This document shows positions 31,080 through 32,604 of a stretch of 64,000 bases of DNA, in pieces (the stretch's first letter is position 1; every line of letters begins with the position of its first letter). Location: the NCBI RefSeq assembly GCF_056746865.1, contig NZ_CM163382.1; one strand, 5' to 3'. A model generated the notes under the pieces. That model saw only the letters and a program-made list of their open reading frames with translations. It was not told where the DNA came from and did no database searches. The position numbers and the translations under genes were made by a program.

Positions 31080-32604
31080 AATGCGCAATACACTCATACC
31101 CATCTTCATTGCGATATGCTTGTTTATAACCGGTGTCACTATTTTGAACATCCAGCTCTGATATTCCGCAAAAGCAGAGTACCTGGCGGGAGCAAGATAT
31201 GCCGCCAACAATATCAATCATATACTTGAAGAAGCGTCACAGGCGACTCAAACGGCGGTTAACATTGCCGGGAAGGAATGCGACCTCGAGGAGCAATATC
31301 AGCTTGGCACTGAAGCAGCTCTGAAACCTCACCTGCGCACAATCATCATTCTCAAACAGGGAACGGTCTGGTGTACATCCTTACCGGGGAATCGGGTCCT
31401 ACTGTCTCGTATTCCTGTTTTCCCGGACAGTAATTTACTGCTGGCTCCGGCAATCGACACCGTTAATAGATTACCTATCCTGCTCTATCAGAGCCAATTT
31501 GCAGATACGCGCATTTTGGTTACGATAAGTGATCAGCATATTCGCGGGGCGCTTAATGTACCCTTGAAAGGGGTAAGGTATGTATTACGCGTGGCAGATG
31601 AAATTATTGGACCTACGGGTGATGTGATGACGCTTAATGGACACTATCCCTATACCGAGAAGGTTCACTCCACAAAATATCATTTCACTATTATCTTTAA
31701 CCCGCCGCCACTCTTTAGCTTCTACAGACTTATCGATAAAGGCTTTGGGATTTTGATATTTATTCTGTTAATCGCCTGCGCCGCTGCCTTCCTGCTTGAT
31801 AGGTATTTCAATAAAAGCGCAACGCCTGAAGAGATCCTGCGACGGGCTATAAATAATGGGGAGATCGTCCCATTTTACCAACCTGTGGTAAATGGTCGGG
31901 AAGGGACATTGCGGGGAGTTGAGGTGTTAGCCCGCTGGAAACAACCTCACGGTGGATATATATCACCCGCGGCATTTATTCCACTTGCTGAAAAATCCGG
32001 ATTAATCGTTCCGCTTACGCAAAGCCTGATGAATCAGGTTGCCAGACAGATGAACGCTATCGCGAGTAAACTGCCGGAAGGTTTTCATATTGGGATTAAT
32101 TTTAGCGCCTCGCATATTATTTCGCCGACATTTGTCGACGAGTGCTTAAATTACCGTGACAGTTTTACCCGTCGCGATTTAAACCTCGTTCTGGAAGTTA
32201 CCGAGCGTGAGCCATTAAATGTTGATGAAAGTCTGGTTCAGCGGTTGAACATTCTGCATGAAAATGGTTTTGTCATCGCGCTGGATGATTTCGGTACTGG
32301 CTACTCAGGGCTTTCTTATCTGCATGACCTGCATATTGATTATATCAAAATTGATCACAGTTTCGTTGGCCGCGTAAACGCAGACCCAGAATCAACTCGG
32401 ATTCTGGATTGTGTATTGGATCTGGCGCGTAAACTTTCGATCAGTATCGTCGCTGAAGGTGTCGAAACGAAAGAACAACTTGACTATCTGAATCAAAATA
32501 ATATCACATTTCAGCAGGGTTATTATTTCTATAAACCGGTAACATACATCGACCTGGTCAAAATTATCCTTTCTAAACCGAAGGTGAAGGTTGTGGTTGA
32601 GTGA
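31080..32604 (+). pseudogene. pdeG: c-di-GMP phosphodiesterase PdeG (YcgG) interrupted by an in-frame TGA at codon 27
   Basis: ATG at 31080 encodes MRNTLIPIFIAICLFITGVTILNIQL then TGA at 31158-31160. The frame continues without further stops through the EAL domain to 32604. Confidence 0.75.

Follow-up and report, generated by a model that had tools for sequence, protein, structure and literature searches.

The pdeG (ycgG) gene in the stretch of Escherichia coli DNA analyzed here (64,000 nucleotides, referred to as the window) is interrupted by a premature opal codon, and we consider it probable (roughly 80%) that this is a recent loss-of-function allele that arose within E. coli ST69, an extraintestinal pathogenic lineage of phylogroup D. 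The lesion is a single G-to-A transition at position 31161, which converts Trp27 to an opal codon. That a single transition accounts for it follows from comparison with three intact alleles, those of the O15:H18 strain “ST69”, AGR6137, and M7424, each of which differs from the window at one position only over 2,324 bp, namely by a G at 31161. Codon 27 is TGG in all of the intact alleles that we examined (K-12 and four others). The preliminary description had proposed that one TGG-to-TGA change explains the stop and had suggested comparing pdeG alleles of other strains as a check; both the proposal and the check came out as expected.

Read off the window, the ATG of pdeG occupies positions 31081–31083 and the in-frame TGA follows as codon 27 (Table 1). 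The ATG had previously been placed at 31080 and the TGA at 31158–31160, each one position too low, while the codon number was correct. Past the premature stop the same frame continues, as had been claimed, without interruption to 32604, with 480 sense codons from 31162 up to the native TGA at 32602–32604. The probability that a frame of 480 codons stays open by chance is approximately (61/64)^480, or about 1e-10, and the open stretch together with the two strong domain matches that lie past the stop is well beyond what chance would produce.

Table 1. Coordinates of pdeG, its encoded segments, and its flanking genes in the window.
Feature	Position	Strand	Description	Basis
ymgC	30497..30745	+	upstream neighbor	annotation of compared genome, offset +7099
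pdeG (ycgG) frame	31081..32604	+	507 codons plus stop, broken at codon 27	translation; 100% identical alleles annotated pseudo
pdeG codons still translated	31081..31158	+	n = 26, MRNTLIPIFIAICLFITGVTILNIQL; transmembrane segment 1	translation; hydropathy peak, residues 1–28
Premature TGA	31159..31161	+	codon 27; mutated base A at 31161, ancestral G (TGG = Trp)	
CSS-motif sensor remnant	31171..31731	+	periplasmic, untranslated; residues 31–217	PF12792, E = 2.3e-31
Transmembrane segment 2	31741..31809	+	about residues 221–243	hydropathy peak, 19-residue windows starting at residues 213–226
TTG codon 225	31753..31755	+	in frame; candidate internal start of a 283-residue TM2+EAL protein	66-nt context match to YcgG2 start
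EAL domain region	31831..32538	+	residues 251–486	PF00563, E = 2.3e-66
Native pdeG stop	32602..32604	+	TGA	sequence and translation
ymgF	32736..32954	+	downstream neighbor, 131 nt past pdeG	annotation of compared genome

When Trp27 is restored in the translation, the 507-residue product is by Pfam a complete CSS-domain/EAL phosphodiesterase, with matches to PF12792 and PF00563 that bear out the earlier assignment of a periplasmic sensor and an EAL domain to this frame. Hydropathy analysis revealed two transmembrane peaks, at residues 1–28 and 213–244; the first is the membrane segment that had been recognized at the N-terminus (TM1), and the premature stop falls at its periplasmic end. The CSS domain contains the cysteines C67 and C98 with a spacing of 31 residues and a C-T-S motif, and the pair is spaced like Cys75 and Cys106 of the paralogue PdeC (PMC5897775). 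All catalytic motifs of the EAL domain are intact (EVL281, the Asn in INFS339, EVTE372, DDFGTG402, KID423, and EGVE459).

The identification of the gene as pdeG is upheld by its position between ymgC and ymgF, within the gene order ycgZ-ymgA-ariR-ymgC-pdeG-ymgF-ycgH, and by its near identity to annotated pdeG: over the region, K-12 is 96.7% identical, and one set of strains matches at 100%. Among the 5,426 complete E. coli genomes searched, a 1.8-kb query region matched pdeG in about 5,040, with less than 80% of the query covered in about 1,080 of 5,043. The ymgC-pdeG intergenic region (30746–31080) is identical between TGG and TGA alleles, and no differences between the two were found over 400 nt upstream. 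Judged from its sequence, the locus is a PdeG orthologue that fails to maintain an uninterrupted frame, and thus a pseudogene of the family.

Several other features were observed around the gene. A 28-codon open reading frame at 30952–31038 (MKMEKILSSAWIFLMLSTMLSVDASASE, resembling a signal peptide), unannotated in the records inspected, terminates 42 nt upstream of the pdeG ATG, and the junction of the deletion found in phylogroup B2 alleles (see below) lies directly after its stop. Just downstream lies the autotransporter gene ycgH (33354–36016), which identical genomes have annotated as a pseudogene with a frameshift, and a second autotransporter beta-barrel remnant is located at about 37331–37675. 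DsbB and DsbA form the disulfide that gates CSS-domain phosphodiesterases; dsbB itself (46259–46789) lies ∼15 kb downstream of pdeG, a nearness that is probably coincidental. Insertion sequences were found within this regulatory cluster in some other carriers of the TGA allele and are not present in the window: strain 118UI has an IS5 inside ycgZ (record positions 3440–4875), and WP7-S17-ESBL-01 and HR5-1 have an IS1 between pdeG and ymgF (from position 3207 in their records).

To determine how widely the stop codon is distributed, we searched 20,395 E. coli RefSeq records with an exact 91-mer and found the TGA in 52 of them, including a few duplicate depositions (equal length and coordinates); the same 91-mer with TGG restored occurs in 278 records. 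Over the whole gene, the window sequence recurs unchanged in 42 records, and with the TGG as the sole difference in at least 60. Human samples (urine, blood, and stool) account for some of the TGA carriers; others came from poultry (duck and chicken), raw-milk cheese, or water (surface water, seawater, and wastewater), and at least 10 countries are represented (among them Mexico, USA, Australia, Egypt, Japan, Norway, China, Poland, Switzerland, and South Korea). One of the carriers, MS14387, which has been typed as ST69 O17:H18 (PMC10024524), matches the window without a single difference across 31,463 bp, and the TGG strain “ST69” shows only 2 differences from the window in 31,372 bp. We infer from these two comparisons that the stop originated recently, inside the ST69 clone. 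Every TGA allele that we inspected bears the PGAP label pseudo with the remark “internal stop”, so at the annotation level the allele is already known as a RefSeq/PGAP pseudogene. No report of a pdeG TGA allele in ST69 was found in the literature searched, outside of which lies the Povolotsky & Hengge 2016 survey of c-di-GMP genes.

Changes that followed the stop are few. Seven of the 10 TGA carriers that are non-identical over the gene were fetched, and among these seven we counted three independent secondary events in all, a number compatible with decay and with constraint alike. A157T (G to A at 31549) is common to five carriers (at least 5 records), a synonymous change at 32556 occurs in one carrier, and the homopolymers of eco-241 contain two insertions of one base each, possibly errors of long-read sequencing. 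The downstream frame would still be open because the time elapsed has been too short for more lesions.

Larger differences between the genomes compared were observed elsewhere in the window. Positions 1–12560 are the tail end of a lambdoid prophage adjoining potB, with genes for a tape-measure protein, minor tail protein L, a C40 peptidase, gpJ, a Lom-family protein, a long tail fibre, and a SAM methyltransferase. SCU-313 is 100% identical to the window from 12579 to 56900 and has potC-potD where the window has the prophage, which places the prophage at the potB/potC junction and indicates that it varies among members of the TGA subclade. In MS14387 and “ST69” a sitABCD prophage is inserted at the 3′ end of icd, leaving a 168-nt icd fragment (positions 31209–49501 and 31300–49501 in the two ST69 records compared). 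At 24073–25430 of the window, icd is followed directly by iraM without a prophage, and the same arrangement is found in SCU-313.

The most likely consequence of the transition, as the preliminary description had anticipated, is loss of the full-length enzyme, in agreement with the PGAP call of a pseudogene with an internal stop. Following the change of the Trp27 TGG to an opal TGA within ST69, ribosomes that start at 31081 would terminate after 26 residues and release the TM1 peptide alone, and the CSS redox sensor, TM2, and the EAL catalytic part would then not be synthesized to any meaningful extent. Approximately 1.4 kb of downstream mRNA would remain untranslated and thus open to Rho-dependent termination and decay. 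Within this untranslated part, positions 31642–31719 are rich in C and poor in G (33% C, 9% G), a composition compatible with Rho loading. A scan found no terminator-like site between pdeG and ymgF, so that polarity from the nonsense codon could plausibly reduce downstream transcription as far as ymgF. The cell would lose one of its five CSS-domain c-di-GMP phosphodiesterases. In K-12, PdeG has been reported as a hub of the GGDEF/EAL interaction network (PMC5635695).

The stop codon might in principle have been misread in the source genome, be decoded on purpose, or be leaky. That the TGA is an error of sequencing or assembly is almost certainly wrong, since the same base recurs across the 52 RefSeq records, which come from varied laboratories, platforms, hosts, and countries, and we found no point in favor of an error. 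Programmed recoding, in which the UGA would be read as selenocysteine or otherwise deliberately decoded, has the in-frame UGA itself to recommend it and nothing further, and we regard its probability as negligible. No RNA family was detected by Rfam at E ≤ 1 in 30400–33400, and the 81 nt of 31150–31230 fold no better than shuffled sequences (z = −1.7), so that nothing resembling a SECIS stem-loop is seen 3′ of the UGA. The flanks of the codon are unchanged from those of Trp-encoding alleles, which argues against an evolved recoding element, and the residue is Trp in every intact allele examined. The idea of a selenoprotein gene was rejected on these grounds.

A leaky UGA is a further possibility: near-cognate decoding by Trp-tRNA would yield full-length PdeG at a few percent of the normal amount, which might suffice for a signaling enzyme of low abundance, so that the allele would be hypomorphic and not null. 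UGA is the most read-through stop codon in E. coli, with Trp mainly inserted (PMC11126739, PMC10570021), and because the residue lost here is itself Trp, the read-through product would be wild type. However, the base directly 3′ of the stop is a T (UGA-U), which improves termination in E. coli reporters, and the high read-through values come from K-12, which has an unusually weak RF2 allele (PMC11126739). Moreover, the level of PdeG in K-12 is low to begin with (cited in PMC6385356 and PMC10459773), and a few percent of this amount would be very little. On balance, we think it very unlikely that the allele is a hypomorph of this kind.

The remaining alternative is that the function of the gene has been changed instead of lost, the message past codon 27 being free of ribosomes and so available for an internal start. 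In phylogroup B2, the ycgG2 allele (NMEC IHE3034, UPEC 536, and c1610 of CFT073; also reported for ST131) has lost the sensor and kept TM2 and the EAL domain, which is what translation from an internal start at TTG 31753 would give in the window: a YcgG2-like TM2+EAL enzyme of 283 residues, uncoupled from periplasmic redox sensing. An internal ATG of YcgG2 at nt 276 (PMC6385356) corresponds to codon 317 of pdeG in the window, which places the TTG start of YcgG2 at codon 225. The 66 nt spanning codons 211–232, this TTG included, are identical to strain 536, whose 283-residue C-terminal protein differs from that of the window at 5 positions. Codon 225 is TTA in K-12, compared with TTG in the window, and TTG is also present in the other alleles of phylogroups D and B2 that we examined; since full-length pdeG alleles carry it too, the “rare start codon” of YcgG2 is not confined to the deleted B2 allele. 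In vitro translation has produced YcgG2 (283 aa, TTG start), which was also found in IHE3034 cells and has phosphodiesterase activity (PMC6385356), and strong decreases in CsgD and rdar biofilm followed when a truncated YcgG variant was supplied on a plasmid (PMC10459773). Similarly, a cloned TM2+EAL fragment of PdeC inserted correctly and was highly active (PMC5897775). With its EAL motifs preserved, the window allele could encode a comparable enzyme.

Against such a product stands the position of the TTG, 591 nt past the premature stop in untranslated RNA that would be exposed to Rho and RNases, whereas the TTG of ycgG2 lies near the 5′ end of its message. The TTG of the window has a weak Shine-Dalgarno pairing (−5.1 kcal/mol, a value within roughly the top 10–15% of random gene positions), as do all candidate internal starts and the native start as well. 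A search for an internal promoter that would yield a truncated transcript gave no evidence for one: the scan returned 5 promoter-like sites versus 8.4 expected from shuffled sequences, with no standout among them. The supplements of the multi-omics paper on MS14387, searched for pdeG, ycgG, ymgF, and ymgC, contain no entries for these genes. Nor does coupled reinitiation near the stop offer a route, because no in-frame ATG, GTG, or TTG occurs between 31162 and 31516, leaving the first in-frame start 355 nt away, so that any truncated product would require independent initiation. A GGAG resembling a Shine-Dalgarno sequence precedes an ATG at 31199, which begins a 41-codon reading frame other than that of pdeG. 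The earlier suggestion that reinitiation might give a truncated cytoplasmic EAL protein is therefore reasonable as regards the truncated EAL protein, but reinitiation is contradicted by the gap, and the protein would be anchored in the membrane through TM2 instead of being purely cytoplasmic. Taken together, we judge a functional switch of this kind unlikely, and loss of function remains our preferred reading.

Comparison with characterized alleles defines what is particular to this one. Intact pdeG has the same locus (ymgC-pdeG-ymgF), length, and TM1/CSS/TM2/EAL architecture as the window allele, whose stop at codon 27 bars the full-length protein under normal decoding. The ST69 TGG allele is 1 nt away from it, and K-12 pdeG is 49 nt away, with 9 amino-acid changes besides the stop. 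The ycgG2 allele results from a 671-bp deletion; strain 536 lacks the equivalent of window positions 31040–31710, which moves its TTG close to the transcript's 5′ end. The window, which aligns continuously with full-length alleles, has no such 5′ deletion (from the start codon to about codon 210). The window allele is full length with a point nonsense change and 591 nt of untranslated RNA ahead of the TTG, in contrast to the deleted ycgG2; as read, it is not a ycgG2 allele, and the two have the context of the TTG in common. Lesions in GGDEF/EAL genes that are specific to lineages are well documented in E. coli (PMC10459773, PMC6385356). Truncated YjcC/PdeC variants and a YciR nonsense variant from commensal and uropathogenic isolates (PMC10459773) are events of the same kind, natural point or truncating mutations that likewise vary between clones. 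The product of ycgG2 has been detected (PMC6385356) and the YjcC/PdeC and YciR variants have been tested phenotypically (PMC10459773).

The practical value of the allele is small. If the truncated-enzyme reading is false, it is a case of routine pseudogenisation that public annotation has already flagged. The base at 31161 provides a clean marker of a globally spread ST69 subclade. By analogy with ycgG2, the nonsense change could also have led to the ycgG2 state a second time and independently: with the sensor-encoding 5′ part silenced, initiation at TTG 31753 would persist at a low level and give a redox-blind phosphodiesterase anchored in the membrane. B2 (through deletion) and ST69 of phylogroup D (through a stop codon) would then have convergently uncoupled PdeG from periplasmic sensing; we consider this improbable, but if true it would represent parallel pathoadaptation in two extraintestinal pathogenic lineages that are not related. 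Repeated loss of the sensor half of pdeG in E. coli is seen in the genomes that cover less than 80% of the query, and the TGA allele adds one case.
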